Below, piece by piece: positions 1,484 through 52,600 of a stretch of DNA of 64,000 nt. The translations under genes and the position numbers were made by a program. Positions within the stretch are counted from its first letter, which is position 1. Each line of letters opens with the position of its first letter. The notes beneath the pieces were generated by a model that worked only from the letters and a program-made list of their open reading frames with translations, did no database searches and was not told the origin of the DNA. Origin of the DNA: an uncultured Rikenellaceae bacterium (GTDB lineage Bacteria; Bacteroidota; Bacteroidia; Bacteroidales; VadinHA17); the NCBI GenBank assembly GCA_964638545.1, contig CAZXAM010000001.1, positions 83,330 to 147,329 on the forward strand, read 5' to 3'.

Positions 1484-4284
1484 TCATTTTACGGGACCCA
1501 GGTAATTATCCATGAAGGTTAAAACCTCCCTGATCATTTCATTTTTGGGGATGTAATGATCTGTTTCATAAATACGGATATGTTTATCCTTTAACGGAGT
1601 TCCCATCAGATCAAAAAAAGGTTTCACCGTTGTTTCATATGGAAATGCCATGTCATATTTTCCGTTTAGCATTAAAACTGGAATCCTTGCATAAGGAAGA
1701 TAATTGAACTCATCAGCTTCGGGAATTCGATCATTTGATTCCAGCCCTCCAACAATTAATACGCTCGCTTTAAGGCGGTCTTCAACTGCCGGGATAATAG
1801 CTCCGAGGCTAGCTCCCCAACTATGCCCGTAATAGCATAATTTCCCGGTGTCAATATCCGGTCGCGTCTGCAGGTAATCAATGGACCTGCTGAAATCTTT
1901 AACCCACTTAATTAACCATTCCTCATACTGACGGCCCTGCCAGGTTATAGTTTCCTGGCCATCTTTTCTCTCGAATGTTCCCTTGTAGACTGGGTATAAA
2001 ACAGCCCGGCCACTCTTAAGAATAAAATCGGTAAACCAGTTTGCCCAGTAATTATCGTTGAAGTCCTTGCTGCCAATCGCATTGCTTCCAGGGAAAAAGA
2101 TAAGGGTTTGGTAGGGAGGAGTTGTATTTCTAGGTAAAAAAAGATAACCGATCATTCTTTCATTGTCATAAGCCGCATTGAATGTAATTTTCTCGATAAT
2201 CCAATCCTGGAAACTGCTGTCACTGCTTTCAATTGCTGTGTTCAACTCCTTATTATCATAAAGAAACCTGTTTTTATAAATTCTGAATACAGATTCCGTA
2301 ACTGGCTTTTCTTTGGAATAATCTCTTTTTTCGCTGAATTCATAAGTCTGGAATGCAGTCTGTGGGATTTCCTCTTTATCGATATACTTAACACAACGAA
2401 ACCCGTTTTTTGGTGACCTGTTAAGAGGAGGCAGCTGGCTTATATTGCTGTACATGTAAACAACATCGTCCCATCCGCCACCTCGCACAACCCGTCCATC
2501 AGGTGCCATATTCCAGCACCATTCCCTCACATTCCCAGCCATATCGAAGGCACCAAAACAATTTATCCCCGGATTACTGCCTACCCTTTCCGCGCTAATT
2601 CCTTTAAAGTTGCTGAATGGAAAAAGTCTGGAATAAAAATAGTTACCGAATGCTTCATAGTCAAATCCAGATGCACTTGCCCAATGGCCGATCGTAGGAA
2701 GTTCCTTATCAGAATATTCGGCAAAGGCTGCAGCCTCGTACCAGCAGACTCCTGAAACCGGATAATCATCTTGTCCGTCCGGAAAATCGCCTGCTACCCA
2801 ATTGGAGGGTCCTGGCTGCCCGGTCTTGTCCGTAAATTCAGCCAAAGCTTCCTTAAAGGAAATTGTCTTTCCATCTTTTATGAATGTATTCTTCCAGAAT
2901 TCTGCCTTCCTGTAACCACCATTTTCGATGAATTCTTTGTACTGTCTGTTTGTTACTTCATAACGGTCAATAAAGAATCCATTTTTGGGCCCTAAGTAGT
3001 TACTTGTCAATTCGTTCTTGTAACCGTACACATAGACCATGCCTTCAGGCATTTCACCTAGTTTGAATAATTTGCGATAAACCGTGTCGATTCTTGTCTG
3101 CATTACCCCCAAAACACTTTCGTAACCAGGTTTCTCCATCTTCATCAGATAGAACGAATGTTTTGGTACCTGCAACTGTTCAATAGGTGTTTGGCCTAGA
3201 GCCTTCCATATGCCAGAAGTATCTGAGTATTCTCTGATCAGGACATTCGCTCCGACAGGTTCTGATATTATAGTAATCTTATTTGTAAAAGTTGAGACCA
3301 ATTCTATGAATCTTTCATCGTTTCCAATGTACTTTCCTGCTTTTTGAGATAAAGCAAATGCCTCATCCATTTTGGTTGCATTGGCCAATTGTTCAATCTT
3401 TGGCAAGGCTTCCCGTTTTGCCCAGTTAACCTTGGATTGATGATTAAGCAAAAATGATGTTCCGGTCAAAATTGCCAAAATTACCAGTATCCCAGGTATC
3501 AAAATCCAATGTTTGAACAAAATCCGGGACTTTTGATTATTCCCAGACTTATCTTTCTCTGTTAAGCCTTCAGGTCCTGACCTAATTATTTCGTTTTCAG
3601 ATATCTCTGAAACATTACTCTCCTTTCTCTTCTCGCCTGCTTTTCCCGCGATTTCTTTTTGCTTTGCTTTATCCTCTGGAGTATGATATTTCATACTTTC
3701 AATGATCTCCTTTATTGTCAACGCGACTTTATTTACCTGGTCACGGTAAAGTACCTGCCCCGAGCTTTTTATTATATCATCATCTTTAGCTCTAAGTTGA
3801 CGATTAACACCGGTTTCTTTATATACAAAGTCAATTGATCTCATCACACCTCCGACAACTGACTCAAATAGCCTGGTATCGGCAATTTCAAGGTCATGAA
3901 TCCGAATAGGAAGAACCCTGTTGGCAACATTGCCGCTGGATAGTTTAATTTTAAATCCAAACCTATCCTCTGTTGCCATCTTTATGAATGTTTTTAGCTC
4001 ATTGTCCCAGGCAAACGACCTTGGATCACAGTATGTCCGCGAAATATAGGCACAAAAACCAAGCTTTTCAGTTTATCTTGAAGTGAAGCATTCACATCAT
4101 AGGACTCAAGAAGATAGTCGCTGGGATTAATGTCAAAATATACACTTATTTCATCCTTAAACATTGTCTCAAGTTCTCCCTTCAGGTTATCTACAAACTC
4201 TGTTACCCACCCATCATGCTTGTTGTCCTTCTGGCGGTAGCTGATGAAGATGTCGTAATTATATCCTTCAATTATGCTTGACAT
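1484..4284 (-). pseudogene. Frameshifted paralogue of the TIR-TM-PEGA-FGE-like-alpha/beta-hydrolase receptor
   Basis: ORFs 3994..4287 (97 aa) and 1484..3979 (831 aa) are two halves of one gene. The 97-aa piece matches residues 1-80 of the intact paralogue (11579..14386), then leaves frame. Shifting frame at about 4045-4048 restores ISRTYCDPRSFAWDNELKTFIKMATEDRFGFKIKL, colinear with the paralogue. A 1-nt deletion in CCTAT.ATTTCG explains this. The true start is ATG 4284-4282 (the first M in the track is a TTG). It could also be a sequencing error. Confidence 0.75.
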
Positions 4285-7309: not shown

Positions 7310-9265
7310 ATGAACCTGGCTCACACAAGTGACAGGGAGTTTATTCAAAAGCTGACTGAATTAGTCGAATTAAACCTTGAGGATGAAAAATTCGGAGTGG
7401 ATGTTCTTATACAACTCTCTGGCTTAAGTCCACACATTGTAAGGCAAAGGATTAAAAAAATCTCTCAAAAAACTATAAGCCAGTTCATTAACGAAATCAG
7501 GTTGCGACGGGCAATGGAGATGTTGCAACAGGGCATGATAACAGCCTCAGAAGTCGCCTATAAAGTAGGTTTCGGAAGCGCTACTTATTTTAACAACTGT
7601 TTCCATGATTTCTATGGTTATCCTCCGGGGGAAGTGAAGAAAAGAGGTATGACCGGGATTAAAGAGGACCATGGCGGACATGACCCAGGGAATTTGATGC
7701 CCGTATCAGTAAAGAAAAGACCCTCCCTTAAGCGGAAGATAGTGATCGTTTCATTTGCTCTTTTAGCTGTTCTTCTGTCAGCTCTTATAATTTATTATTT
7801 TCTGTTTAATAAATCGGGAAGAAATTTTAGCAGTCCGGACAAGGAAATCTCTATTGCAGTACTGCCTTTTACAAACCTGAGTGATTCTCCTGAAAACAGA
7901 TATTTCACGGATGGTGTAATGGAAGACATCCTGAGCAACCTGAACCGGATCAGTTCAATAAAGGTTACTTCCAGAACATCGGTTGAAAAGTACCGACAGA
8001 CAACCAGGGGTGCAACAGAAATAGCAAAAGAGCTGAACGTCAGGTATATTCTTGAGGGGAGTGTTCAGAGGAGCAATGATAAGGTAAGAGTCAGGGTGCA
8101 ACTGATCGATGCCAGGCGCGACCAGCATATTCTATCCGAAACATTTGACAGGGAGCTGGATGATATCTTCTATATCCAAAGCAATATTGCAATCCAGATA
8201 GCCAACGAACTGGAAGCTGCACTTTCGCCCGGGGAGACTGAAATGATCGGATATATCCCTACCAGGAATACAGAAGCCTATTCGCTCTATTTAAAAGGCC
8301 GTTATTTCTGGTATAAAAGGACAAGGGAAGGATTCGAAAAAAGTATTGAATTTTTCGAGAAAGCTGTTGAAGCCGATCCCGGTTATGCACTGGCATGGGC
8401 AGGACTGGGTGATGGCTATTTCTATCTTTCATGGTACAATTGGTTTGAACCTGGCCGGGAACAAGGATTTGAAAAAGCAAAAGAAATTGCATTGAAGGCC
8501 ATCAGACTTGATAATGACCTGGCGGAAGCTCATGTTTTGCTGGGAAATGTTTATTTCTGGCATGAATGGAACTGGCAGGAAGCAGAAAAGGAGTTGTCAT
8601 TAGCTGTCAAATTGAATCCGAACTATTACATGGCTCATTGGGTTTATGCAGAACTACTGGATGTTCTGGCCAAAAGAGTGGAAGCCAGAGCCCATTTAAA
8701 CCGCGCACTTGAACTGGACCCGGTTTTTTACCTCCCCTACAGCACCAGTGCATTGCTTTATTACAATGATGGAAATTTTAAGGGTGCGATTAAAGATTGC
8801 CACAAGTGCATTGAGTTAAATCCGGATTATAATTCAGCTTACTATCATGCCTGGTTTAGTTACCTGCAGCTCGACAGTATTCCCCAGGCTATTCACTTCC
8901 TTCAGGAATTGTTATTGGTTGATTATAATACCGGTTATTCAGATTCAAAATACTATGAATCTGTAGATTCCGTCTTCAAAACGGCAGGCATGGAAGGATT
9001 ACTGCAATGGATGCTTCAAAACAGATATGCGCAATCCAGTTTTATAGGAAAAGCCAGATTACTTATGATGATTGGCAACAGGGAGGAAGCGGTCAGGAGC
9101 CTTGAACTGGGATATAAATTGCATGAGCGTGATATGGTCAGAATCATCTCAATATATGATTTAGTTGATCTCCGCTCTGAGCCACGTTATATGGAAATCG
9201 TCAAAAACATGGGGTTGGCGGATTACTTAAATGTAGCCCTGGCTTCAGGACAGTTGCCACAATGA
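7310..9265 (+). CDS. AraC-family HTH single-pass membrane regulator with TolB-N-like + TPR periplasmic tail (651 aa)
   Basis: The N-terminal region FINEIRLRRAMEMLQQGMITASEVAYKVGFGSATYFNNCFHDFYGYPPGEV is a classic AraC/XylS HTH_18 region. It is followed by a TM helix (IVIVSFALLAVLLSALIIYYFLF), then ISIAVLPFTNLSDSPENRYFTDGVMEDIL...YILEGSVQ...VQLIDAR, then TPRs. The tail is roughly half identical by eye to the tail of the TIR protein at 57961..60105. Confidence 0.85.
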   Translation: MNLAHTSDREFIQKLTELVELNLEDEKFGVDVLIQLSGLSPHIVRQRIKKISQKTISQFINEIRLRRAMEMLQQGMITASEVAYKVGFGSATYFNNCFHDFYGYPPGEVKKRGMTGIKEDHGGHDPGNLMPVSVKKRPSLKRKIVIVSFALLAVLLSALIIYYFLFNKSGRNFSSPDKEISIAVLPFTNLSDSPENRYFTDGVMEDILSNLNRISSIKVTSRTSVEKYRQTTRGATEIAKELNVRYILEGSVQRSNDKVRVRVQLIDARRDQHILSETFDRELDDIFYIQSNIAIQIANELEAALSPGETEMIGYIPTRNTEAYSLYLKGRYFWYKRTREGFEKSIEFFEKAVEADPGYALAWAGLGDGYFYLSWYNWFEPGREQGFEKAKEIALKAIRLDNDLAEAHVLLGNVYFWHEWNWQEAEKELSLAVKLNPNYYMAHWVYAELLDVLAKRVEARAHLNRALELDPVFYLPYSTSALLYYNDGNFKGAIKDCHKCIELNPDYNSAYYHAWFSYLQLDSIPQAIHFLQELLLVDYNTGYSDSKYYESVDSVFKTAGMEGLLQWMLQNRYAQSSFIGKARLLMMIGNREEAVRSLELGYKLHERDMVRIISIYDLVDLRSEPRYMEIVKNMGLADYLNVALASGQLPQ

Positions 9266-9504: not shown

Positions 9505-11007
9505 ATGAAAACACCTGGAAGATTTTTATTCATTGCGGCTTTTATGAGCCTGATCATTGGTTGCAGTGAGAAGGAGACTGGGATAGGCGGATTGGCTGAA
9601 TCAGATCTGAATATAGCATCATTAAATCTGAAAGCAGCAAGCGGTTCAGCCATATTTGTTGTCAATCCGAGCGGAGGTGATGATACCCCTGCTGTTTTAG
9701 AGGCATTTGATAACGCCAAAGCCGCCGGACCTGGCTCGGTGGTCCAACTGGAAGAAGGTACTTATCACCTGAATTTTCTGGAGGTACGTGAATTTAACGG
9801 TAAATTCAATGGAGCCGGCAGGGGTAAAACTATAATCACAACGGTACCTGATCTCGATGTTAACACACTGATCGATTTGAAATTAAATACAATTTTGATC
9901 CGATTTGTAGGAGGCGATGTTTGCATGAGTAACATGACAGTAACGACACCTTACGGCCCATTGAGCACAGGCAAGGAATCTTATATCGACGGACTGGTTG
10001 GATTTTCAGCCCGGACTTATCAGTATACTTCAATGAATGATTATATAAAAGCGGTTGTCGATAATGTCGGATTTAAAGGACACTGGGAAAATACTCTCCA
10101 TGGATTAAAAGCAGAATTCGGTACCAGAGCAAATGCAAGGATTCCCGGAGGATGGCCTCTCTCGTACATGGAGATTTCAGTCAATAACTGCTCTTTTGAT
10201 GGTTTCTATTCTTTTGGTGCACTTTTTCAACATTTCAACGGTGGAAAGATCGTTGCCGGAACCAAAAACCGCGGAAACATTTTTGATAACAATAGCGTAA
10301 GCGGAAATGTCCCATTTGAAACAGGAGGCGGTGGATCACTTGGGATCTGGAGTAATGTCAATGTTGAAATGTCTGTTGAGGGGAATACATTCACTGTCCC
10401 GGAGGGAGTACGTTGGGGTATTGAAATATTCAGTTCACCCGTTCCTGCCCGTCTCGCGCAGGTAACGCAAACAAAAGTTACGGTTTGCAATATTGAAAAA
10501 AATGTTTTCAACATTACCGGGGGTGCAGGAGGTGTGTCTGTCAATGACCGACGCCGATTCTTCTTTCCTGAAGAATTGCCTATGATTGTTCAGGTCAAAA
10601 ACAATATGTTCAATCTAAGTAATGAGACATTTTCGGCTATAAGTTCCTGTAACATGAAGGGTATGGTTATTCGGAATAACAAGTTTGAGGGAAATGGACA
10701 ATATGGAGTCCGGATAATCGGCCCCATTGTTGCCAGTAGTGGTCAGTCTCCCCTGCCGCCTAACGAAAATGGCCTGATGCTTGGTAACAACTATAGCAAT
10801 TCAACTTTTTCAGTAGCTTCAGTCCTTCTTGATGAACGAACAAATAACTGGACAATAGTGGGTGGTAACCTGGGTGAAAGTCTGATCGACATGACCAACG
10901 GGGCAGGAAATCATCTCATCACCGGAATGAATGTAAACACTTCCGATGTTCCTTTAGGCCAGACTATTACAGATAACCTGGAAGAAATAAGAGAAGGAAT
11001 GAAATAG
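9505..11007 (+). CDS. Secreted lipoprotein, probable right-handed parallel beta-helix (pectate-lyase-superfamily-like) protein
   Basis: Lipoprotein signal MKTPGRFLFIAAFMSLIIGC. The motif NPSGGDDTPAVLEAFDNAKAAGPGSVVQLEEGTYHL resembles the N-terminal cap of pectate_lyase_3-type beta-helix proteins. Repetitive N/G-rich turns follow. Confidence 0.5.
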   Translation: MKTPGRFLFIAAFMSLIIGCSEKETGIGGLAESDLNIASLNLKAASGSAIFVVNPSGGDDTPAVLEAFDNAKAAGPGSVVQLEEGTYHLNFLEVREFNGKFNGAGRGKTIITTVPDLDVNTLIDLKLNTILIRFVGGDVCMSNMTVTTPYGPLSTGKESYIDGLVGFSARTYQYTSMNDYIKAVVDNVGFKGHWENTLHGLKAEFGTRANARIPGGWPLSYMEISVNNCSFDGFYSFGALFQHFNGGKIVAGTKNRGNIFDNNSVSGNVPFETGGGGSLGIWSNVNVEMSVEGNTFTVPEGVRWGIEIFSSPVPARLAQVTQTKVTVCNIEKNVFNITGGAGGVSVNDRRRFFFPEELPMIVQVKNNMFNLSNETFSAISSCNMKGMVIRNNKFEGNGQYGVRIIGPIVASSGQSPLPPNENGLMLGNNYSNSTFSVASVLLDERTNNWTIVGGNLGESLIDMTNGAGNHLITGMNVNTSDVPLGQTITDNLEEIREGMK

Positions 11008-11578: not shown

Positions 11579-14386
11579 TTATTTTACCCTACCAAGATAG
11601 ATGTCAAGGAATTCAAGGACATCCTTTATCATATCATCTTTGCGAATATAATGGTCAGTATCATAAATCTTTAAATGCTTATCTTCTGGCTGCGTTCCCA
11701 AAAGATCATAAAAAGGTTTTACGTTTGTCTCAAATGGAAATGCAAGATCATATTTGCCGTTCAACATTAATACTGGTATCTTTACATAAGGCAGATAATT
11801 TAATTCATCTGCTTCAGGAATGCGTTTTCTCGTAGGTAAGCCCCCGACAATTAAGACACTAACTTTAAGACGGTCTTCAACTGCAGGAATTATCGCTCCA
11901 AGTCTCCCGCCCCAGCTATGACCATAGTAGGCCAGTTTCCCGGTATCAATATCCGATCTGGTAAAAAGATAATCAATCGATCTTTTAAAATCCTTAACCC
12001 ATTTAGTCAACCAATCAGCGTACTGATGGCCCTCATTTGTTACTGGTTTTTCGTTATCTATTCTTTCAAAGGTCCCATCATAAACCGGATATAGGACAGC
12101 ACGTCCGCTCTTCAGAATAAAGTCTGTGAACCAATTTGCCCAGTAATTTTTATTGAAATCCGTGGTACTAAGCGCATTACTGCCGGGGAAAAAAATGAGT
12201 GTCTGATAGGGCGGTGGAGAATTTTTTGGTATGAAGAGATATGCAATCATCTTTTCATTATTATACGCTGCATTGAAGGTGACTTTTTCAAGTATCCAAT
12301 CCTGATAACTGCTGTCCCGGCTTTCTATCAGGGCGTCTAATGGTATATTATCATAAAGAAACCTGCTTTTATAAATCCTGTAGGTAACCTCCGGAACCGG
12401 CCTTTCGATTGCATAGTTTCTGGATTCAGGGAGTATATACGATTGAAAAGCCGATTCAGGAATTTTTTCTTCATTTAAATATTTAACACATCGAAATCCA
12501 TTTTTGGGTGATCTGTCAAATGGAGGCAGCTGACTTATATTACCATACATATAAACAACATCATCCCACCCGCCTCCTCTCATTATCCTGCCATCAGGAC
12601 CCTGGTTCCAGCACCATTCTCTTACATTGCCCGCCATATCAAGCGCCCCGAAGCAGTTAATTGCAAAATTGGTTCCAACAGGTAAAGGGCCTGCTCCTTT
12701 AAAGTTGCTTAAAGGAAATAGTTTTGAATAGAAATAGTTTCCGAATGCTTCAAATTGGAATCCAGCTGCACTTCCCCAGTGATTGACGGTTGGAAGTTTC
12801 TTGCCGGCGTATTCAGCATAGGCTGCAGCCTCATACCAACTTATACCAGATACCGGATAATTTTCATATCCATCAGGGTAGTCGCCGGCAATCCACGTTG
12901 ATGGTCCGGGTTGTCCCGTTTTGTCCTTAAACTCAGTGAATGCCTCACTTAACGTTAATTTTTTCCCATCCTTTATGAAGTCATATTTCCAGTATTCTGG
13001 TTTCCTGTAACCACCTTCATTAACGAATTTTTTAAATTCTTTATTGGTAACTTCACAGCGATCAATCAAAAAACCATTCTTGTTTTTAAGATAATTACCT
13101 AATAATTCATTCTGGTAACCATATACATATATCATCCCGGGTGGAATAGTTCCCTGCTTGAATAACCTTCTGAAAATCGTATCAATCCTTGTCTGCATTA
13201 CAGCATCAATACTCTCATAGCCGGGTTTTTCAATTTTCATAAGGTAGAAGCTATGTTTTGGGACCAGGACTTGTCCTATCGGTGTCTTACCAAGATACTT
13301 CCATTGAGCAGCCGTATCAGAAAAGTCTCTGATCCTTACCTCCGCACCATCAGGATCAGTAATAATTGAAATATTTGTGGTAAAAGAAGATACCAATTCA
13401 TTGTAATTCTTGTTTTTTGAAAGATACTTTGCAACTTCCTGAGACAGCTTAAATGCTTCATCCATATTATTGCTGTTTGCAAGCTGTTCAATTTGAGGTA
13501 GCGCTTTTTCTCTTGCCCATTTGATCTTTGATTGCCGGTTAATTAAAATACCAATCATTAAAACAGAAGATAAAACAAACAGTATTAAAAGGAACATAAA
13601 CCATTTCCTTTTAAATAATAAAATCGCTCTTCTTCTTTCAGGGATTGGTAACTCCATTATTTGATCCTTCCCGATTACTTCTCCATTTTTATATTCAGGT
13701 TTTTCTGACCTAATTCTAATTTCATCTTCCCCCTTATGATCAAAATCTCTGATGTTATTTTCGGTCTTCATGTTCTCAGATGAGAAGGATATCATACTAT
13801 CAACCATCTCCTTGATTGCTAATGCAACCTTATTAATCTGGTCTCGGAAAAGTACCTGGCCCGGATATCTTACTATATCATCATCCTTACTTCTCAGCTG
13901 TCGGTTTACACCTGTTTCCTTATAAACAAAATCAATTGATCTCATAATACCGCCAACAACTGATTCGAATAATTTTATATCCCCTGGATCAAGATCATGA
14001 ATCCGGATTGGCAACACTCTGCACGCCACATTTCCGTTCAGAAGCTTGATTCTTAATCCAAACTTGTCTTCAGATGCCAGCTTCACAAATTCTTTCAACT
14101 CATTGTCCCAGGCAAATGCTTTTGGATCGCAATATGTCCTTGAAACAATCGGAATGAATATCAGACATTTGAGTCTGTCTCTTAAAGAGTCTTTTACGTC
14201 ATATGATTCAAGAAGATAGTCGCTGGGATTTATATCATAATATAGACTTACATCATCTTTAAACATTGAATCAAGTTCTCCTTTGAGATTCTCAACAAAC
14301 TCCGCCACCCAGTTATCGTGTTTGTTATCCTTCTGGCGGTAACTAATAAAGATGTCGTAATTGTAACTTTCAATAATGCTTGACAT
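11579..14386 (-). CDS. TIR-TM-PEGA-FGE/SUMF1-like-alpha/beta-hydrolase receptor (935 aa)
   Basis: TIR head at residues 1-~190 (DIFISYRQKDNKHDNWV...IFIPIVSRTYCDPKAFAWDNEL). TM helix at about 262-282 (WFMFLLILFVLSSVLMIGILI). PEGA-like segment at about 338-395 (ITDPDGAEVRIRD...GKTPIG...KIEKPGYES). FGE-sulfatase-like domain at about 418-636 (IDRCEVTNKEFKKFV...GNVREWCWN...RGGGWDD...GFRCVKY). C-terminal alpha/beta-hydrolase with G-H-S824-W-G, D880 and H912 (DLH / S9-peptidase-like). Confidence 0.85.
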   Translation of the reverse strand: MSSIIESYNYDIFISYRQKDNKHDNWVAEFVENLKGELDSMFKDDVSLYYDINPSDYLLESYDVKDSLRDRLKCLIFIPIVSRTYCDPKAFAWDNELKEFVKLASEDKFGLRIKLLNGNVACRVLPIRIHDLDPGDIKLFESVVGGIMRSIDFVYKETGVNRQLRSKDDDIVRYPGQVLFRDQINKVALAIKEMVDSMISFSSENMKTENNIRDFDHKGEDEIRIRSEKPEYKNGEVIGKDQIMELPIPERRRAILLFKRKWFMFLLILFVLSSVLMIGILINRQSKIKWAREKALPQIEQLANSNNMDEAFKLSQEVAKYLSKNKNYNELVSSFTTNISIITDPDGAEVRIRDFSDTAAQWKYLGKTPIGQVLVPKHSFYLMKIEKPGYESIDAVMQTRIDTIFRRLFKQGTIPPGMIYVYGYQNELLGNYLKNKNGFLIDRCEVTNKEFKKFVNEGGYRKPEYWKYDFIKDGKKLTLSEAFTEFKDKTGQPGPSTWIAGDYPDGYENYPVSGISWYEAAAYAEYAGKKLPTVNHWGSAAGFQFEAFGNYFYSKLFPLSNFKGAGPLPVGTNFAINCFGALDMAGNVREWCWNQGPDGRIMRGGGWDDVVYMYGNISQLPPFDRSPKNGFRCVKYLNEEKIPESAFQSYILPESRNYAIERPVPEVTYRIYKSRFLYDNIPLDALIESRDSSYQDWILEKVTFNAAYNNEKMIAYLFIPKNSPPPYQTLIFFPGSNALSTTDFNKNYWANWFTDFILKSGRAVLYPVYDGTFERIDNEKPVTNEGHQYADWLTKWVKDFKRSIDYLFTRSDIDTGKLAYYGHSWGGRLGAIIPAVEDRLKVSVLIVGGLPTRKRIPEADELNYLPYVKIPVLMLNGKYDLAFPFETNVKPFYDLLGTQPEDKHLKIYDTDHYIRKDDMIKDVLEFLDIYLGRVK

Positions 14387-14408
14387 AAGATTATTAAATA
14401 GTTAATAT

Positions 14409-14440
14409 CAAAATTAAACCATAATCAGGCTAATTGCAAA
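14409..14440 (-). promoter_or_regulatory. Putative promoter of the 11579..14386 TIR gene (TTTGCA ... TAATTTTG)
   Basis: Minus strand: TTTGCAATTAGCCTGATTATGGTTTAATTTTG. There are 20 nt between TTTG and TA, and the -7 box lies about 22 nt before the ATG. Confidence 0.5.
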
Positions 14441-37186: not shown

Positions 37187-38104
37187 TCACTTAATGTTCT
37201 TTCTGTCAGTCTTCCAGTTGGGATCTTTCGACAGGCCGCACGGATCTCCCGTAAAGAGAGCGCCGGCTACCTTGTCGCCTTTCAGCTGCCACTGACACCA
37301 GGCTGTTGCCACTTTGGCGAATTCACCTCCGTGAGGCTTGCTGTAGGTCCCTCCGTGTCCGACATCCATGTTAGCGGCAAATACCGGCAGATTGTTTATG
37401 CGGTTGAAATCATCCATGCCGTTTGCATAAGCAATGTCCTTCTCGCCTCCGAGCAAGTAAAGGACCGGTGTATGAAGTTTCAGGAGATGTTCCTTTGTCA
37501 GGCCCGGCATTCCTGCCATTCCGGCTCCCGGATTGGGAAGTATACCGCTGTTACAAACTATAACGGTGGATACTCTCGGATCAGGTCCTGCTTCGAGCGC
37601 CTGCAAACCTCCGCACGACATTCCGCTGACCGCGATCTTCGTTATATCGATTTTATTATAATAGGGACTTGCTTTGTCGTTGTTCTGAGCTATCGCCCAA
37701 TTGATAGCATCGATAATCGTCCCTGATCCCGATCTGCCCATACCGCCTTTTTCACCTTCCTGCGGCATAGGCCCTATGGCAATCACCAGGAAGCCATGGG
37801 AAGCAATCTCCGACAGGAAGTTTATATGTTCCCAGGGCGAATTGGCGCATGCTCCGTTACCCCAGGAAATAACCGGCAGTTTTGTTTTGCTTCCGAATGG
37901 TTTCAGGTCGGCGGGCCTGAAAACAGTATGTGTCGGAAGAGAGCTTTCTGACAGCATTATTGCAGGCCATTGACCTGTACCGCCATCTTCCACTGTCCTT
38001 TGAGTCGGCTTTCCGGGTGAAGATGGTTCTTGTGATCTGCCCTGATACGTTATGCCCAGTCCGGCAGCTAACAGAAGAATAAAAAGTGATTGTGCTTTTT
38101 TCAT
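37187..38104 (-). CDS. Secreted alpha/beta-hydrolase (esterase; family not resolved)
   Basis: Signal peptide, a nucleophile-elbow-like segment AVSGMSCGG, and late D/H candidates (GGEKD, VGHGG). Its context among xylan esterases suggests a carbohydrate esterase. Confidence 0.5.
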   Translation of the reverse strand: MKKAQSLFILLLAAGLGITYQGRSQEPSSPGKPTQRTVEDGGTGQWPAIMLSESSLPTHTVFRPADLKPFGSKTKLPVISWGNGACANSPWEHINFLSEIASHGFLVIAIGPMPQEGEKGGMGRSGSGTIIDAINWAIAQNNDKASPYYNKIDITKIAVSGMSCGGLQALEAGPDPRVSTVIVCNSGILPNPGAGMAGMPGLTKEHLLKLHTPVLYLLGGEKDIAYANGMDDFNRINNLPVFAANMDVGHGGTYSKPHGGEFAKVATAWCQWQLKGDKVAGALFTGDPCGLSKDPNWKTDRKNIK

Positions 38105-38263: not shown

Positions 38264-40654
38264 CTATTCATACCTCAGGGAATCGACAGGATTCTTTGCC
38301 GAAGCCCTGTAGCTTTGGAAAATAACGGATCCTACGGCAATTAAAAATGCAATAATTCCCGTCAATGCAAAGATCAGCCAGCTGACAGTGGTCTGATAGG
38401 CGAATCCCTGAAGCCATCTGCGCATTATTATCCAGGCAACAGGGCAGGCAATAATAAAAGCCGGTATCTCGAACCTTATAAAGTATGACAGCATCAGCAG
38501 GATTATATCTTTTGTTTCTGCTCCGTTGACTTTTCTGTAACCAATCTCCTTTGTACGCTGCTCTGCAATGGAGCTTACCAGTCCGAACAGCCCGAGGGCA
38601 ACTACAAGTATGGCCAGCAGAGCAAATGCCGTCAGGATCCTGCTCAGCCTTTTCTCTTCGTTGTATTGCCTGTCGAAATATTCGGTGCTTAAAAAGTAAT
38701 CAAAAGGATCTCCTGGATAGTGTTTAGGCCATACAGACTGAAGATGGGCCAGCATTTTTTGCTGATCGCCCTGAAACCTGAAAGAATAAAATCCAAATTC
38801 AAAAGGATGCCTGTGAATGAAAACGACTGGTTCCGTTGGCTTTTTAAGTCCCTCGTGGTGAAAATCATTTACAACCCCTTTGATTGTGTATCTGACGTTT
38901 CCGATGAGGAATTGTTTTCCTACAGCAGCCTGTGGTGAGTCATATTCAAGAACTTTTACAAGCGATTCAGATATGATGGCTCTGGCTGTATCCAGTATTA
39001 TCGGTTGTTCGAAGTTCCTGCCTGCCAGCAGCTTTAGTCCATAGGCAGGAATATATCCGTCGTCGATAAGGCCTTGTACTACTTCAAGTTTCAGGTTTCC
39101 CGGCATATCGGATCTTGAAATATTGCTGATCCTGAACCTCATGGGCTGGCCCGGAACATTCATGCTCGCTGTTCCGCTTACAAATCCGGATTGCTGGAGG
39201 ACCTCATCGCGAAATGCAAGAAAATGTTCCCTGCGCAAGGAATCGGTATGTGTTGATGCTGCACCCCTGAGAACTATAACCTGGTTCAGGTCAATGCCAA
39301 GATCAGCTTTCTGCATGAAACGTATCTGCCTGGTCACTGTCAATGAGCAGATCACAAGGAAGCACGACATAAAGAACTGGATTCCCACAAGCCATAGTGA
39401 ACCGCTGTTCTTTGAGATTTTCTTCTGCTGTGCAAGTGAAGGATCGACCTTCAGGGAGGGTACAGATCCTATTAATGCCATCACGATTATCCCTGCCGGG
39501 ATCAGTGCAGCAGTCAGAAGAATGATATTTGAGTAATTGACATAACCATCCGAAATAGGAGTGTTGATCAGCCTGCTGAAAAAGCCCGAAGTGAGAAAAT
39601 ACAATAGCACTGAAATGATCACAGCTGCAGAATTGATGATAATACTTTCAGTAAGTGACATCCCGAACAAGGAGCGCCTGCCTGCTCCAAGCTTCCTGTG
39701 TATTGCAAATACATTCAGTCTTTTACGTGCAATAGCCGTTGACATGTTCACATAGTTCATCCAGATTATAACCAGTATGAGAGCAGCAATGACCGAGAGG
39801 GCATTAATTGTTTTTACCCTCGTACTTGTACCGAATTCTCCGGCCCGGTCCGTACTATAATGCAGGCTTTCGAGAGGCTGCAGGGTAAACTTACCTGTAC
39901 GATTCTGTCTCTCAAGGAAAGTAAGGTACTTCTTTGAGATCTCTTCCAGTGATTTTTCAACATTCAGAGGATCAGCACCTTTTTTAATTTTAATATATGT
40001 CCACCAACCCGCTCCGTTGAAATTCTCCGTTCGTGGGATCCCTCCGTCTTCCACCCATGTCCGGATTGGCATAAAATAGTCGCAATGAATATGGCAGTTT
40101 ACAGGAAGATCTTTAAATATTCCCGTGATTTCGTGACGCATGCCCTGGTTTACCAGAAGGACTTTGCCGATAGGATCCTCATTCCCGAAGATTTCCCTGG
40201 CTTTTGATTCAGAAATAATGCAGAAGAACGGGTCATTTAATCTTGCTGCTCCGCGGATCATTTCCAATTCAAACATTTCAGCAAAATCCCCTTCCACCCA
40301 CAGGTCGCTCTGATCGCTGAAAAGATGTTCGTCGTATTTTACCAGTACATCTTCATAATAGGTTGTGGCGCTCAGTTCGATTTCAGGAATTTCTTCCTTT
40401 ACAACCCTGAAGAGCCTTCGCGGAGTCTTGGCTGAATGAAGAACACTTTCACCGTTCTGGGTAATGTCGTAGTTTATACGATAGATCTGTTTATAGGATT
40501 TGAAATATTTATCATATCCTTTTTCATAACCAATATATATGACAAGCCGGACAAAGAACAGCATTCCAACCGCAAGGCCAAATACGTTCAGCAGTGCATG
40601 AAATTTATTCTTCCGGAGGTGATTCCAGGTAGACCGGAGGTTTATGAGATTCAT
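38264..40654 (-). CDS. FtsX/MacB-like ABC transporter permease (orphan, no adjacent ATPase)
   Basis: 796 aa with two MacB_PCD-like periplasmic regions, each followed by an FtsX 3-4 TM bundle. The start …LRKNKFHALLNVFGLAVGM… is typical of the family. Confidence 0.8.
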   Translation of the reverse strand: MNLINLRSTWNHLRKNKFHALLNVFGLAVGMLFFVRLVIYIGYEKGYDKYFKSYKQIYRINYDITQNGESVLHSAKTPRRLFRVVKEEIPEIELSATTYYEDVLVKYDEHLFSDQSDLWVEGDFAEMFELEMIRGAARLNDPFFCIISESKAREIFGNEDPIGKVLLVNQGMRHEITGIFKDLPVNCHIHCDYFMPIRTWVEDGGIPRTENFNGAGWWTYIKIKKGADPLNVEKSLEEISKKYLTFLERQNRTGKFTLQPLESLHYSTDRAGEFGTSTRVKTINALSVIAALILVIIWMNYVNMSTAIARKRLNVFAIHRKLGAGRRSLFGMSLTESIIINSAAVIISVLLYFLTSGFFSRLINTPISDGYVNYSNIILLTAALIPAGIIVMALIGSVPSLKVDPSLAQQKKISKNSGSLWLVGIQFFMSCFLVICSLTVTRQIRFMQKADLGIDLNQVIVLRGAASTHTDSLRREHFLAFRDEVLQQSGFVSGTASMNVPGQPMRFRISNISRSDMPGNLKLEVVQGLIDDGYIPAYGLKLLAGRNFEQPIILDTARAIISESLVKVLEYDSPQAAVGKQFLIGNVRYTIKGVVNDFHHEGLKKPTEPVVFIHRHPFEFGFYSFRFQGDQQKMLAHLQSVWPKHYPGDPFDYFLSTEYFDRQYNEEKRLSRILTAFALLAILVVALGLFGLVSSIAEQRTKEIGYRKVNGAETKDIILLMLSYFIRFEIPAFIIACPVAWIIMRRWLQGFAYQTTVSWLIFALTGIIAFLIAVGSVIFQSYRASAKNPVDSLRYE

Positions 40655-40800: not shown

Positions 40801-42105
40801 TTAATGATCGGTTTTTCTGAAATCTGCTGTTATCTTTCCTTTTGCTTTGGTAAGATCAACTTCTTTTGAGATTCCGTTTACAGTTACCTTGTATTTGCCG
40901 TAAAAGGCCGGAACTGAGAATTTACCTTTTTTGCCTGCAACTCCCGACTCTTTTGTCCACCACTCTTTAAAGATAAGATTTTTGTAAGCTGCTGCTGAGG
41001 GTGTCGGTGTCCAGTCCCGCTTGTAAAGTGATGAAGAAGGGATCCAGTTTGCACCTTCCCAGAAGCCCCACATAATTATGCCTTCGACAGCATGATGCGC
41101 AAAACAGATCCTGTAAAAATCAACTATCTCCTTCGCCTTTGCTTCCTCCTGCTCAGCTGAAAGCTGGCTTTGCTTGTACTTTGAGCGCATTCCCGGGATA
41201 TTAAATTCCGTGATACGAATCGGCAATTTAAAGATTGCCAGAGAATCCAGGCATCTGACGAGTTCCTTACGGTCGAATGTTTCAAGGTAGCTGTGCCCCT
41301 GCACTCCAATCCCGGCAATGGGGACTCCCTGCCTGAGCAATTTCCTTATATGTGCCATATATTCCGGCAGCCCTATACCCAGCGGAGAATCGGAAATCAG
41401 AATATCATAATCATTCACCCATAGTTTTGCACCCGGATCGCCGTTAAGCGCCCATTGCGCCATAAGTTTTGTAATCTCAGGCCCAAGCCGGTCTTCATAG
41501 TAGTTCCCGTGGATCATCTCATTATTGAAGTCGTAATCGGAGAACCGTCCCTTATAGCGCCTTGTGATTGTCTCAGCCCTATCCTGTATTCTTTGCTTTA
41601 GTTCATCATTGCCCATGTCCATAACCCACTGTTGTACATATTGCTGACCGGTGTTTGGCGACTTTACGATCCCCCAGAAGAGGTTATGTCCCCGGAGAGG
41701 CAGATTATTCTTCTCGGTCCAGCTGAGTATTGAATCCACAACTGCGTAATTTACCTTATCCTTCTGCGGTTCCATTATCATCCACTTCAATGCATTTTCG
41801 GTGACAGCTGAATTGAAATTCTCAAGAAATTTCTCCCTGAACATTTTTTGATTGGCTGCCGACATTCCTCCTGCAAAGTTATTTGGTATCGCACACCCGA
41901 ACCAGAATTCATGCCCCAACTGCTCTACAGTTATCCCGGAACCCCTTTTTGCCTTTACTATCAGCTCCCCTTTACGGTATTTCGATATCGAGTCGTTTAT
42001 ACCGGCATATTGGGCTTTTATTTTCTGAGGCCAGGAAAAATATGTCATAAAAATGGCAAGAATGAGAATAAACGCTCTTTTGATTTCCTGGTTATAATTT
42101 TTCAT
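40801..42105 (-). CDS. GH10-like glycoside hydrolase (probable endo-beta-1,4-xylanase) with a C-terminal beta-sandwich-like extension
   Basis: GH10 landmarks are present: ENALKWMIMEP, LRGHNLFWG, the acid/base box DFNNE and the nucleophile box RITEFNI. Confidence 0.65.
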   Translation of the reverse strand: MKNYNQEIKRAFILILAIFMTYFSWPQKIKAQYAGINDSISKYRKGELIVKAKRGSGITVEQLGHEFWFGCAIPNNFAGGMSAANQKMFREKFLENFNSAVTENALKWMIMEPQKDKVNYAVVDSILSWTEKNNLPLRGHNLFWGIVKSPNTGQQYVQQWVMDMGNDELKQRIQDRAETITRRYKGRFSDYDFNNEMIHGNYYEDRLGPEITKLMAQWALNGDPGAKLWVNDYDILISDSPLGIGLPEYMAHIRKLLRQGVPIAGIGVQGHSYLETFDRKELVRCLDSLAIFKLPIRITEFNIPGMRSKYKQSQLSAEQEEAKAKEIVDFYRICFAHHAVEGIIMWGFWEGANWIPSSSLYKRDWTPTPSAAAYKNLIFKEWWTKESGVAGKKGKFSVPAFYGKYKVTVNGISKEVDLTKAKGKITADFRKTDH

Positions 42106-42681
42106 ATTGTCGTTTTTATTCTTTTCCTTTATAAAGATTCCGTAAGTGTCCCTGATGGTCTTTCAAAAATATGTTTTTTATGCCAAAAACTCTCAAACGA
42201 ACTAAACAACCCGTTAACTTTAAATGTAAAAAATACAATTCATTAAAAATTCATCCTTATTTCCTATTAACTACTCATTATGAGGTCTTTAACTAATCAT
42301 TGTAATAAACAGCACCTGCTAATGATCTGAATTTTGACAGAAAAATTGAAGAGAATGACCAATTATTAATAGTTATTTTTTAACGAGGTAAGTATTTTCA
42401 TAGATTATAAATTTTATCAGAGAAGGTTAATTAGTTGGAGATGATCCAACAGGTATTTTCTTTAAATAAATCCGGATTAATCTTTGAAGCTGACGGATAA
42501 GAAAAAGTAAGGAATTAAGATTTGATTTTTCACTGCGAAATATTTTTTTATTAAATAACCCTAAACCTAAAATTTGCATTGCCTATGAAGAGACTTTAAC
42601 ACTGGTAACAGGGGAAAACCTTAATTCCTCTGATCAATTTGAAATTAACTAAAATTTTAACCTAATCTAAACCTTTTAAGT

Positions 42682-45600
42682 ATGGAGAAACATAATTTGT
42701 TATGGCCTTCAAACAGATTCTCAGGAAAACTGATCACTACAATCGCTGTTGTTATGATCTGTTTTTCCGATCTGTTCGCTGTGCCTGGCGATCCTGTGAC
42801 TGCAGGTGCTTATGGTAGCAATCAGCAGCAGCTGACTGTTGCAGGAAAGATCACTGATGCCTCAACCGGTGAAGCATTAGCTGGTGTTAACGTTGTTGTG
42901 GAAGGCACAACAATAGGCACCACATCCGATGTTAACGGGGCATATTCACTGCCCGGCGTTAATCGTAATGCCAGTCTTTCATTCTCATTCATCGGGTATG
43001 TAAAGCAGGTTGTTCAGGTATCAGGCAGAACGGTAATCAATGTAGTTCTTACTGCTGAGATTACCGGGCTCGAAGAAGTAGTTGTAATCGGCTACGGAAC
43101 TCAGAAGAAAGAGACATTAACCGGCTCGGTTGCTGCTATTAAGTCGGATCAGATCCTGTCCACAAAAAGTCTTAGCCTTGCAAGTAACATCCAGGGTAAG
43201 ATACCAGGGGTTCAGATCCGTCAGCAGACTGGTCAGCCCGGAACTTTCAACAGCCGTATCAGTGTTAGGGGATTTGGCGAACCTCTTCTGGTTATCGACG
43301 GCGTCGTACGCGACCAGATGGATGATTTTGAAAGGCTGAATCCGGAAGACATCGAGACCATCTCTGTTCTTAAGGATGCTTCTGCGTCCATATATGGCCT
43401 TGGCGCTGCAAACGGAGTTTTTATCGTAACAACAAAGAAGGGATTTGCAGGAAAAACAGAGTTTTCTCTCAATACAATGTATTCTGTTAAACAACCTACA
43501 AACGACTGGTCTGTCATAAACGTAGACGCCTATACAATGCGCTACATGTGGAATGAAATGAGCAGGAACTCGGAAAGCTCATCCAATATAACCAGTCCTG
43601 AAGAGCTTGCAAAATGGAAAGCCGGCACCGAAAAGTATTATACCGATTATAACTGGTGGGATAACCTTGTAAGGAAAAACGTCAATTCAAGTGAAATTAC
43701 CTTCAATGCCAGGGGAGGTAATGAGCAGATCACCTTCTTCTCAAGCTTTGGTTATAATAATGACGGCGGATACTTCAAGAATAATGAGCTTTTGCAATAT
43801 GACAGGTACACTTTCCGTACAAATGTTGAAGCAAAGCTGGCCAAGGGTTTGAAGATGGGTGTCAATGTTTACGGCAGATATGAAAATACGCTCAGCCCCA
43901 CAAGAGGAACAAGTTGGACATTCAAGCGTATAATTACGAATGACCGAGGTATAGGCCCCTTCACACTCGACGGTAATAACAATTACACACAGGTTCCTTC
44001 GGAAAACACTAACGTTTTTGCTGAGCTTTCGAGAGACGCATCAGGTTATGTACAATCCCTGAAATTACAGTATCAGACTACCGTTAATATCAATTATGAA
44101 CTCCCCTTCCTTAAAGGTTTATCAGTTGGGGCACAGATTGCATACGACGGACAGGTTAACGAAGGCAGGAATCTGAATGTGAATTTCTTATTATACGATT
44201 ATGTTACCGGACTTCCAAAGTCAGCATCAGTAGCTCCCACAAAATTTACAAATTCGTTCGATACCTATACCAGGAAGGATCTTCAGGCAAATATGACCTT
44301 CAGAAGAACTTTTGGTTCGCACAATATCGGAGCAAATTTTGTTTACCAGTTAAGGAGGATCGACAATAACAATCTTTCGGGAGTAAGGCAGTTCGATGAT
44401 CTCTACACCAAGGATATACTAAACCAGGCCAGCCTTACGGGCCAGTCAACAGCCGGGTCACGATCGGAAGCAGCATATATATCCTATATAGGCAGGTTCA
44501 ACTACGACTACAAATCCAAATACCTGCTTGAGTTCAGCTTCAGGGAGGACGGATCGTACAGGTATTCTCCCGCCCAGAGATGGGGATTCTTCCCTTCTGT
44601 TCAGGCAGCATGGAGGATCGGGCAGGAACCATTCATCAAGAACGCTCTCCCCATGGTTTCAGACCTTAAACTAAGAGCGACATGGGGCAAGTCAGGAAAT
44701 GATGCCGGAAGTGCATTCCAGTATTATGAAGGATACACCTGGAGCGGCGTCAGCGGCGGTTTTATATTTGCAGACGGTATCCTTACCAAAGGCATGGTCC
44801 CTCCCGGAATTGTTAATGATAATCTTACCTGGGTCGGTACAACTCAAAAAGACGTGGGTATTGACGTTGAACTGTGGAAAGGAAAACTGGGATTTACATT
44901 CGATTTTTTCAGAAGGAATTTGGTCGGCGAGCTCGGAACCCGCGCCTCCTCTCTGCCCAACACATTCGGTGCAAGCTTCCCGCAGGAGAATCTCAACAGC
45001 AGTTTCAATCAGGGATACGACTTAATGCTTACTCATCGCAATACCATAAAGAAGTTCAATTACGGTTTCAACGCAACATTAGGTTACAGCCGCACGTATC
45101 TTACTCATCGTGAGCGCACTGCGAATCAGAGTACCTGGGATGTCTGGAAGAACGGAAATGATACATATGATGATAAGGGACGTATCCAGGGAAGAGCGTT
45201 TATTAATGAGAGAGATGGTATCTATACAACTCTTGAAGAGATGGAGACAGCTCCTCTCGCTGGCGGAACCCTCGGTAACTATATGATGCTGCCCGGTATG
45301 GACAGGATCAAAGATACTGACGGCGATGGAAGGATAAGCGGTGGCGATGACCAGCTGCCTATATCCTGGTCGGCTCAGGGAACTAACCCTCCGTTGCAGT
45401 TCGGAGCAGGCCTGAATGCCAACTACATGGGTTTTGATGTAGTTATCAATATGGCAGGATCGTCCCTGTTTACAATGGGCAAGAGCAGAGGTGACCAGTG
45501 GGGTTATGGAACTCAATACAGGTTCTTCCTTGCAGAATATATGGACCGCTGGCATACAGCAAATGATACAGACAATCCGCGTGATCCTGCAACAGTATGG

Positions 45601-45915: not shown

Positions 45916-45926
45916 AAACTACTGAT

Positions 45927-47924: not shown

Positions 47925-47948
47925 CATTAATCTGTAAAATATATAGAT

Positions 47949-48722: not shown

Positions 48723-48795
48723 GCCATAAGATCAGAGTCTTTAACTGACATCTGATATGTCTTAAACAAACACTGTTAAAGACACGATACCATGA

Positions 48796-48838
48796 ACAGG
48801 CAGTGCAACTATAAATCAACGCACTGCCTGTTTTTTTT
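48796..48838 (+). terminator. Rho-independent terminator after the SusC/SusD/DUF3823 unit
   Basis: ACAGGCAGTGC-14 nt-GCACTGCCTGT followed by TTTTTTTT. Confidence 0.8.
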
Positions 48839-48860
48839 AACAAAATAACCTGAACCAACA

Positions 48861-50984: not shown

Positions 50985-51035
50985 CAGAACTTCTGCTTTT
51001 ATGATTAACGAAGGCGTCTCAAAAGAAAAAATCCA

Positions 51036-51178
51036 TTAACCGCAAAGGTCGCAAAGATCTAACGCAAAGACCGCAAAGTATTATTTACCTACTTCTTAGC
51101 TTTGCGTTCTTTGCGTGGATCTACCCGCCGGATCCGCCAGCCGGCGGAGCAGGCGGGCTTAGCGCACTTTGCGGTTAA
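51036..51178. repeat. Inverted cluster of CGCAAAG / CTTTGCG heptamer words with an embedded GC hairpin
   Basis: The forward words are TTAACCGCAAAGgtCGCAAAGatctaaCGCAAAGacCGCAAAG. The inverted words are CTTTGCGttCTTTGCGtggatc … CTTTGCGGTTAA. The inner hairpin is CCCGCCggaTCCGCC-AGCC-GGCGGAgcaGGCGGG. Lies between the convergent GH43 and GH10 genes. Confidence 0.8.
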
Positions 51179-51294
51179 AATTGGCTTTTAATTCACCTTC
51201 TCTTTCTTCACAACTCATTATTATATCTTTTCCCGAGAACAATCTTATCTCCGGAATCATCAAGCTTATGGATCTCCGCAGCTGCTCCAGGGAG

Positions 51295-52536: not shown

Positions 52537-52600
52537 ATTTTTTATTTTTTAGTTAATAATTTGCTTCAGTCTGACGACATTTCATCAAAGCCTGATTGCC

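Follow-up and report, generated by a model that had tools for sequence, protein, structure and literature searches.

What is the role of a bacterial membrane protein that carries a TIR-like domain at its N-terminus and, behind its only transmembrane (TM) segment, an FGE-like domain followed by a serine hydrolase? The question is raised by an open reading frame (ORF) in a 64,000-nucleotide (nt) stretch of DNA, hereafter the window, from an uncultured Rikenellaceae bacterium (assembly GCA_964638545.1, contig CAZXAM010000001.1, positions 83,330 to 147,329). The ORF, here called the target, was confirmed as complete, encoding 935 amino acids (aa) at 11579–14386 on the minus strand, and every residue position cited in an earlier note on this DNA proved exact. 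That note had described five modules, namely TIR, TM, PEGA, a cysteine-less formylglycine-generating enzyme (FGE)-like domain and an intact serine hydrolase; the TM segment, the FGE-like domain and the hydrolase were borne out, while the TIR and PEGA assignments scored below the Pfam thresholds. In this study, we tentatively propose, at a little short of an even chance, that the target is a self-contained, single-pass inner-membrane one-component receptor with a TIR-like output. The features on which this proposal draws are collected in Table 1.

Module layout of the target protein

The full-length protein was modelled with AlphaFold2 on an alignment of 119 full-length homologues, and all conservation and invariance counts given below refer to this alignment unless stated otherwise. 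The mean predicted local distance difference test (pLDDT) score of the model was 84.8. FGE-sulfatase, at residues 434–635, was the only Pfam family over its curated cut-off. PEGA (PF08308) matched residues 337–398 with E = 0.023 and 15.1 bits against a cut-off of 20.8, the score being likewise 15.1 bits in a second FGE-type copy in the window, and the family is present in the precomputed domain lists of several target orthologues; the sub-threshold PEGA call draws on the predicted structure and motifs. Residues 254–285 form the sole hydrophobic segment, modelled within one continuous helix (253–304), and no N-terminal signal sequence was found in the protein. Mean column conservation was 0.82 in the head versus 0.67–0.73 in the tail domains and 0.38 in the linker, which makes the head the most conserved module of the protein.

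The head is probably a divergent TIR-like domain

In the full-length model the head has pLDDT values of 80–90 outside two loops (residues 54–63 and 163–177), and its elements follow the order βA (10–16), αA (25–41), βB (48–52), αB (62–72), βC (74–81), αC (91–105), βD, αD (134–144) and a long αE (178–208). A Foldseek search with a head-only AlphaFold model of poor quality (pLDDT 57, predicted template modelling score 0.57) returned TIR domains as its five best matches, four of them bacterial. BtpA (4lzp) came first, with E = 1.2e-3 and a probability of 1.0, and BtTir (7uxr), TcpB (4lqc) and PdTIR (3h16) were among the top; these TIR matches had E-values of 1e-3 to 1e-2, probabilities of 0.93–1.0 and template modelling scores of 0.51–0.54 on the target. 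Lower in the list, TLR, RRS1, IL-1RAPL, SARM1 and ThsB were mixed with other flavodoxin-like folds, among them CheY-like and lumazine-synthase folds at E-values of ~0.02–0.1.

The stretch Y10-DIFISY-R17 on βA is invariant and fits the TIR Box 1 consensus D-V-F-I-S-Y (PMC7075850). Invariant residues comprise the SYR at the end of βA, S82, T84, C86 and D87 in the βC–αC loop, and W93 and E96 at the start of αC; the last two are retained in 119 of 119 homologues, in 60 head-family members and in a homologue from Hymenobacter. E96 is listed in Table 1 as a candidate equivalent of the catalytic glutamate of TIR NADases. Further, Pfam TIR_2 (PF13676) scored 13.7 bits (E = 0.09; cut-off 28) on the head alone, matched 15 of the 60 head-family members below threshold (best E = 0.0021), and was the only head-region family that recurred among the 25 families most often matched by these members. 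The Hymenobacter homologue matched TIR_2 with E = 0.0084 over profile positions 1–108 of 122.

Several observations weigh against the TIR assignment, beginning with the poor quality of the head-only model behind the fold search. No TIR family matched the full-length target in Pfam, and all Pfam TIR matches of the head stayed below the gathering score. PDB sequence searches with the head (phmmer) and with a 59-sequence head profile (hmmsearch) gave no match, and hhalign aligned the head to the SARM1 TIR domain, a query checked to be 100% identical to the PDB chains, over 11 residues only (YDIFISYRQKD versus PDVFISYRRNS, Prob 22%). In addition, E96 stands at W+3 and not at the canonical W+4 (WxxxE), a spacing one residue shorter.

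These points are shared by the alternative that the head is no functional TIR domain but belongs elsewhere among the flavodoxin-like folds, as a receiver-like domain or a novel module that binds nucleotides or proteins, and only has the βA motif in common with TIR and SEFIR. It would accommodate the sub-threshold TIR-model matches, mostly restricted to head residues 6–48, the CheY-like and lumazine-synthase folds in the Foldseek list and the non-canonical W-to-E spacing. However, it leaves unaccounted for that TIR domains took the five best places with probabilities up to 1.0, that the Hymenobacter alignment spans most of the TIR_2 profile and that TIR_2 alone recurred in the head region, and the residue pattern is unlike the phospho-acceptor Asp/Thr/Lys set of receivers. 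We therefore consider this alternative quite improbable. The head is probably a divergent TIR-like domain; the predicted fold and the motifs speak for the TIR call of the earlier note, while sequence comparison with TIR models and structures yielded nothing significant.

PADLOC gave only a weak bSEFIR match on the target (residues 9–35), and the bSEFIR and ThsB models were weakly matched by the head family. The PADLOC candidate model PDC-S66 weakly matched head residues 6–48 in 50 of 59 family members (best E = 2.4e-4), over profile positions ~145–185 of 282.

The same head is joined to exchangeable tails

Five genes in the window carry this head: the target, a second PEGA-FGE-esterase copy and three genes of TPR type. 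Each of the four intact ones encodes one hydrophobic segment after the head. The second PEGA-FGE-esterase copy is disrupted by a 1-nt deletion at ~4044–4045, in the head and inside the motif PI(I/V)SRTYCDP; its FGE segment is the same and likewise cysteine-less, and its catalytic triad is intact.

The orientation of these proteins in the membrane follows from an adjacent gene, encoding an AraC-type helix-turn-helix (HTH) protein. From its TM segment onward this protein shares 37% identity with the TPR-type head-bearing paralogue at 27675–30089, over 343 aa (E = 2e-58). Because the homologous TM segment and tail here carry a DNA-binding AraC head, which is necessarily cytoplasmic, the tail is placed in the periplasm and the head slot is that of a cytoplasmic output. 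A target topology with the head in the cytoplasm and the tail in the periplasm is thus strongly supported, and the comparison speaks for a swappable head that forms the cytoplasmic output of an exchangeable sensor. This wider pattern, in which the head is the constant module, occurs in five copies in the window and is followed by interchangeable tails, one type of which it shares with an AraC-type regulator, had escaped the earlier note.

Family size, distribution and annotation

A protein search with the target gave 3545 matches at E<1e-5. The best 120 of them all span the full query and all bear the head, at 51–82% identity; 119 are 912–954 aa long and one is a 736-aa partial sequence. The architecture, which the earlier note had held to be unusual, is therefore not rare, being spread across Bacteroidales and Cytophagales metagenome-assembled genomes (MAGs), and its exact domain order, proposed there as a database query, turned out to be common, with at least 120 full-span matches. 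Used on its own as query, the head matched 1002 clusters (50% identity), with E-values below 1e-30 for 484. Of the 150 matches listed, 148 carry the head right at the N-terminus, and most are proteins of 650–850 aa. Behind the head, FlgO/TolB_N/LpoB-like plus TPR tails predominate, PD40 propellers are found in some cases, and tails of PEGA-FGE-esterase type occur as well.

More than 583 head-encoding sites were found in contigs representing one genome per species, and 78 loci were kept. Among the long head-bearing ORFs of these loci, 59 of 70 have a single TM segment at residues 200–330. All but one of the loci (77/78) come from MAGs of Bacteroidales (Rikenellaceae, Marinilabiliaceae), Bacteroidia or Cytophagales, some of which hold many copies; the exception, LNGD01000173.1, is a 2.7-kb contig in a MAG of the archaeal Candidatus Methanofastidiosum and, being so short, probably came into that bin by contamination from a Bacteroidales genome. 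Truncation was seen in 19 of 89 head-bearing ORFs (~20%), a figure compatible with real decay and with assembly indels alike.

No match to the target family was found in phages, and plasmids yielded one head match only, on NZ_CP094670.1 of Hymenobacter tibetensis KACC 21982. Here the head (50% identity) opens a soluble protein of 530 aa that has no TM segment, and the stop of the gene shares one base with the start of the next, which encodes a 1440-aa nSTAND1 NTPase. The strain is a cultured one; the carriers of the full-length type found in this study were all MAGs. The nSTAND1 linkage is a single case, absent from every other fetched locus and from the window.

Public annotation names the homologues 'dienelactone hydrolase', 'eukaryotic-like Ser/Thr kinase' (JGI), 'hypothetical' or 'SUMF1/EgtB/PvdO family nonheme iron enzyme' (NCBI); the kinase label may be an annotation artefact, and the NCBI label is misleading. 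No characterised family member was found in our searches, and in the full-text literature searched we found neither the target architecture nor a bacterial family of TIR proteins anchored by a TM segment described, so that within the literature and databases searched the remark of the earlier note stands that no characterised protein combines a TIR head with such a tail. This is a large, uncharacterised, receptor-like family restricted to Bacteroidota and misnamed in public annotation. A large TM-anchored TIR-like family in Bacteroidota and the PEGA-FGE-esterase tail appear undescribed in the literature searched; the individual domains and the logic of output, TM segment and sensor were already known.

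The FGE-like domain has no catalytic cysteines

FGE-sulfatase (PF03781) matched the target with E = 3.5e-26 over profile positions 33–255 of 255. The fold motifs GNVxEW (586–591) and GFRC (630–633) are conserved. RGGGW at 603–607 is followed by DDVVYMYGNISQL, in which positions 608–614 read DDVVYMY. In human FGE (SUMF1) the catalytic, Cu(I)-binding cysteines C336 and C341 follow a GGS motif. No cysteine lies between G604 and R632 in any of the 119 homologues, and 0 of 119 carry one at either FGE catalytic position, which extends to the whole family what had been noticed in the target and in the frameshifted copy. Because both cysteines are missing family-wide, the FGE-like domain, as judged from sequence, cannot be a copper/cysteine formylglycine-generating enzyme.

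PDB sequence matches of residues 418–935 were to EgtB, FGE, SUMF2 and OvsA, with E-values of ~1e-9 to 1e-8. Over its last 76 residues the domain is nearest to PorK/GldK, which read RGGSWKDVARF...GFRCVR and are also cysteine-less, and then matches the diversity-generating retroelement (DGR) variable protein TvpA, PvdO and SUMF2/pFGE. A genuine non-haem-iron or copper oxidase of SUMF1/EgtB/PvdO type, as the NCBI family name and partial NCBIfam matches to EgtB and SenA might imply, is effectively refuted: beyond the cysteine counts, EgtB, SenA and OvoA scored 65, 57 and 34 bits, in the FGE-like part only, against cut-offs of 360–420, and a DinB-type iron domain, as in EgtB/OvoA, was not among the Pfam matches of the target. 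On the same scores, membership of the sulfoxide synthases (EgtB/OvoA/SenA) was rejected. The cysteine loss, the absence of a DinB domain and the nearness to PorK/GldK, TvpA, PvdO and SUMF2 instead favour a binding module over an oxidase, in agreement with the suggestion first made for this domain. 'FGS'/C-type-lectin-fold domains have been treated as ligand-binding or sensor modules (PMC7159879, PMC10907252), and their proposed use as sensing appendages is consistent with these reports.

The target domain shares with PorK/GldK, SUMF2/pFGE, PvdO, TvpA and the 'FGS' sensors the FGE-sulfatase fold, the motifs GNVxEW and RGG(S/G)W...GFRC and the lack of catalytic cysteines, but differs from each in its setting. 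Membership of the PorK/GldK lipoproteins of the type IX secretion system (T9SS) was rejected, as NCBIfam GldK scored 35 bits against a cut-off of 350, the target has no signal peptide and is not a lipoprotein, and it has no T9SS neighbours and lies outside any T9SS cluster. Unlike TvpA, it has neither a DGR template repeat nor a hypervariable region. Diversification of the domain by a DGR was likewise rejected: repeats in the window are only at paralogue level, with 69–80% identity, the two FGE-type copies are near-identical in residues 598–636, and no reverse transcriptase was found among the scanned window ORFs. Unlike 'FGS' sensors at the C-terminus of cytoplasmic STAND/vWA proteins, the target domain is periplasmic and stands between the PEGA-like domain and the esterase.

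The C-terminal domain is apparently a serine esterase

The triad motifs are GHSWG at 822–826 (S824), KYD at 878–880 and DHY at 911–913. S824, D880 and H912, as well as G822 and G826, are invariant in 119 of 119 homologues, and in the AlphaFold2 model the three triad residues occupy the canonical α/β-hydrolase loops after β5, β7 and β8 with pLDDT >90, in support of the triad that the earlier note had called plausible. Pfam matches at residues 790–916 were to the α/β-hydrolase families PETase, DLH and Peptidase_S9, all sub-threshold, and PDB sequence matches were to enzymes of PETase, cutinase and dienelactone-hydrolase (DLH) type at E-values of ~1e-5 to 1e-4. With the full-length model, Foldseek ranked CE7 acetyl-xylan esterases and cephalosporin-C deacetylases (AXE1) best (E 3e-13 to 1e-10; ~320 aligned columns covering residues ~620–935; template modelling scores of 0.64–0.68 on the target; 15–20% identity), followed by CE15 glucuronoyl esterases and small esterases.

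CE7 enzymes carry the signature motifs RGQ, GxSQG and HE. These are absent from residues 640–935, where GHSWG and DHY are found instead, and because of this absence the relation to CE7 is a kinship of fold and not membership of the family. The CE7 structures are the nearest ones and have the Ser-Asp-His residues in the same order; in contrast to the target, CE7 enzymes are soluble hexamers. From model and conservation together, the C-terminal domain is apparently an active serine esterase.

Could the target then be no more than a periplasmic esterase for carbohydrates or lipids, anchored in the membrane, in which the FGE-like and PEGA domains bind substrate or act as spacers and the head serves for anchoring, oligomerisation or localisation of the enzyme but does not signal? 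The invariant triad, the CE7/CE15-like fold and a neighbourhood of esterases, GH10, GH43 and SusC/D would all suit such an enzyme. However, it is the head and not the enzyme that is most conserved, the same head serves TPR- and PD40-tailed paralogues that have no enzyme, ~40 invariant head residues would be needless for an anchor, and the CE7 motifs are absent. This explanation is thus hardly a likely one, and the receptor with a TIR-like output is retained as the preferred reading.

Promoters and genomic context

A near-identical promoter was found by alignment upstream of four of the five head-bearing genes, consisting of TTTG, ~20 nt and then TAATTTTG or TAACTTTG; the Bacteroides promoter consensus is TTTG/TAnnTTTG. 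The conserved upstream promoter blocks lie at 4285–4345, 7077–7137 and 14387–14447. An RNA leader or riboswitch was rejected as an explanation of the conserved proximal block, which is the promoter, since Rfam gave no match anywhere in the window. Further upstream, a 71-nt block located 80–150 nt before the gene is 80% identical between the two FGE-type copies (4365–4435 versus 14464–14534).

Across 28 loci of PEGA-FGE-esterase type the paralogues are often in tandem, and no other gene family stands beside them in more than 4 of 28 loci. Because there is no conserved neighbour in these loci and the paralogues have promoters of their own, the target is regarded as self-contained. The gene directly upstream of it (14627–15880, minus strand) encodes an ATPase with AAA_14 and DUF4143 that matches PADLOC PDC-S01 with E = 1e-60, and AAA+ ATPases of at least two families lie directly upstream in ~5 of 28 loci; this may reflect a mobile or selfish gene that is abundant, or else a loose functional link. 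A Thoeris-type context was not found, as no adjacent effector gene was conserved in the 28 loci and PADLOC gave only weak partial matches. Taken as a whole, the window is a xylan-utilisation and efflux neighbourhood and not a defence island; besides the genes in Table 1 it holds a major facilitator superfamily (MFS) sugar transporter and a resistance-nodulation-division (RND) pump with TetR.

These data bear on another explanation, that the target is an envelope-surveillance immune receptor whose tails detect phage or competitor molecules and whose head depletes nicotinamide adenine dinucleotide (NAD+) or makes an immune signal, with abortive infection or growth arrest as the outcome. TIR domains typically act as effectors in defence, the Hymenobacter head gene overlaps that of an nSTAND1 NTPase, expansion of the family has given many paralogues that keep the head and vary in their sensors, about a fifth of the copies are truncated, and the PDC-S01 match and the other upstream AAA+ ATPases would also fit. 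Set against this, the target itself has no significant PADLOC match, the 28 loci contain no conserved effector or partner gene, phages hold no copy and plasmids a single one, the neighbourhood is not that of a defence island, and the nSTAND1 link is a lone instance. Moreover, one tail type of the family is also found on an AraC transcription regulator, and the head is conserved to a degree unusually high for a component of an arms race. An immune role of this kind is accordingly unlikely, and the receptor reading proposed above is preferred to it.

Among the intergenic features, a strong terminator-like hairpin follows the lipoprotein gene at 11031–11064. An imperfect inverted repeat with 61-nt arms, 75% complementary and 27 nt apart, spans 11246–11394, in the intergenic region downstream of both the target and the lipoprotein genes.

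Table 1. Coordinates of the target, its modules and key codons, its paralogues and other features (positions in the window unless a locus is named)
Feature	Position	Strand	Basis or remark
Complete target ORF: TIR-like head, linker, TM, helical stalk, PEGA-like sandwich, FGE-like domain, esterase	11579..14386	-	Pfam and AlphaFold2, mean pLDDT 84.8
Probable divergent TIR-like head, residues 1–200	13787..14386	-	Foldseek, weak TIR_2, Box 1 motif
Cytoplasmic linker, residues 201–252, predicted disordered	13631..13786	-	pLDDT <50 for 205–256; conservation 0.38
Hydrophobic segment core, residues 263–285	13532..13600	-	Hydropathy peak 2.98
Periplasmic juxtamembrane helical stalk, residues 286–335	13382..13531	-	Helices 253–304, 308–322, 326–335, pLDDT ~90
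PEGA-like β-sandwich, residues 336–407	13166..13381	-	Seven strands modelled, pLDDT 84–96
FGE-sulfatase/C-type-lectin-fold domain without the two catalytic cysteines, residues 418–636	12479..13135	-	Pfam E = 3.5e-26
α/β-hydrolase with N-terminal extension, AXE1/CE7-like fold, residues ~640–935	11582..12469	-	Foldseek
Glu96 codon, in AW93-D-N-E96-L, start of αC	14099..14101	-	Candidate equivalent of TIR NADase catalytic glutamate
Ser824 codon, nucleophile, after strand 813–823	11915..11917	-	Invariant 119/119, AlphaFold2
Asp880 codon, triad acid, after strand 872–877	11747..11749	-	Invariant 119/119, AlphaFold2
His912 codon, triad base, loop after strand 903–908	11651..11653	-	Invariant 119/119, AlphaFold2
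Bacteroidota-type promoter of the target: -33 TTTG, 20-nt spacer, -7 TAATTTTG ending 22 nt before ATG	14409..14440	-	
Second PEGA-FGE-esterase paralogue, disrupted	1484..4284	-	65% identical to target
Paralogue with same head, one TM, TPR tail, 725 aa	4899..7076	-	
Paralogue with same head, one TM, TolB_N/LpoB-like + TPR tail, 804 aa	27675..30089	-	
Paralogue with same head, one TM, FlgO-like + TPR tail, 714 aa	57961..60105	-	
AraC-HTH protein, one TM, FlgO/TolB_N-like + TPR tail	7310..9265	+	Pfam HTH_18 E = 1.2e-14
500-aa predicted lipoprotein (signal peptide ends LIIGC), between AraC-type gene and target	9505..11007	+	No Pfam or PADLOC match
Five tandem ORFs, 425–472 aa	30241..37088	-	One scanned (30241–31554): PF00756 'putative esterase'
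PETase-like hydrolase	37187..38104		
MacB/FtsX permease	38264..40654		
Xylan-utilisation cluster	40801..56386		
GH10, three genes	40801..42105, 51295..52536, 55277..56386		
SusC-like	42682..45915		
SusD-like	45927..47924		
GH43 + F5/8 type C	48861..50984		
Hymenobacter head gene and nSTAND1 gene	NZ_CP094670.1, 737–6651 of locus		Both annotated hypothetical
AAA+ ATPases directly upstream in other genomes	L005 4729–5862, L018 4764–5897, L015 4663–5823, L028 3846–5126		

Proposed function and relation to known systems

In the receptor reading, the FGE-like domain would bind a periplasmic or envelope ligand, and the esterase would bind or de-esterify it; a glycan or an ester-bearing polymer fragment as ligand would fit the xylan-degrading neighbourhood. 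Occupancy may then alter the oligomeric state through the TM helix and the stalk and bring the cytoplasmic TIR-like heads together. The assembled heads would form the output, as in other TIR proteins, either by NAD+ cleavage or cyclisation at the W93/E96 pocket or by recruitment of a partner. The target is one tail variant of a large Bacteroidota family, in which the head would serve as constant output and the periplasmic domains as variable sensors. That the tail signals to the head by oligomerisation, with an NAD+-dependent or scaffolding output, is plausible. Besides the weaknesses of the TIR assignment given above, these points count against this reading: K/R residues number four on each side of the TM segment, so that the positive-inside rule is uninformative; the link to xylan is one of genomic context; and the esterase is without the CE7 motifs.

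The arrangement of the target resembles that of ToxR/CadC-like one-component regulators and of Ser/Thr kinases with periplasmic sensor tails, which also combine a cytoplasmic output, one TM segment and a periplasmic sensor; eukaryotic-like Ser/Thr kinases carry similar periplasmic tails. In contrast to both, the output of the target is TIR-like and neither DNA-binding nor a kinase. With bacterial TIR proteins and SARM1-type NADases (BtpA/TcpB, PdTIR, BtTir, Thoeris ThsB) the head shares the predicted flavodoxin-like TIR fold, DIFISYR and the invariant Trp and Glu at the start of αC, but it differs from them in the missing significant TIR sequence match, in the Glu at W+3 and in its fusion through a TM segment to periplasmic domains. 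Unlike in Thoeris, no effector gene is adjacent to the target. The bacterial TIR proteins that we found described in the literature are all cytoplasmic defence components or secreted effectors.

A further likeness is that to animal Toll-like and IL-1 receptors, which likewise have a variable extracytoplasmic binding domain, one TM segment, a conserved cytoplasmic TIR-type domain and a repertoire of many paralogues. In the target, however, the TIR-like domain is N-terminal, so that the order is reversed, and the ectodomains of the family are FGE-like, esterase, TPR and PD40 domains and not leucine-rich repeats or immunoglobulin domains. The likeness is an analogy only and implies neither shared descent nor adaptor signalling. 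It is possible, though on the doubtful side, that the head signals as a catalytically competent TIR domain. The whole family, with its ~1000 clusters and many copies per genome, would then be a bacterial counterpart of Toll-like receptors, in which the recognition of periplasmic ligands such as glycan esters, envelope fragments or peptides is converted into NAD+-derived second messengers or NAD+ consumption in the cytoplasm, and TIR signalling would serve routine environmental or envelope sensing and not only phage defence.

Neither Pfam nor NCBIfam nor PADLOC contains the head, so that surveys of TIR proteins and of defence systems currently miss these genes. If the proposal is true, TIR biology would be extended to bacterial transmembrane signalling, and the family would offer a natural sensor-swap set for studying what triggers TIR assembly. 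The esterase of CE7-like fold in a xylan region suggests that polysaccharide de-esterification and signalling may be linked in gut or soil Bacteroidota.

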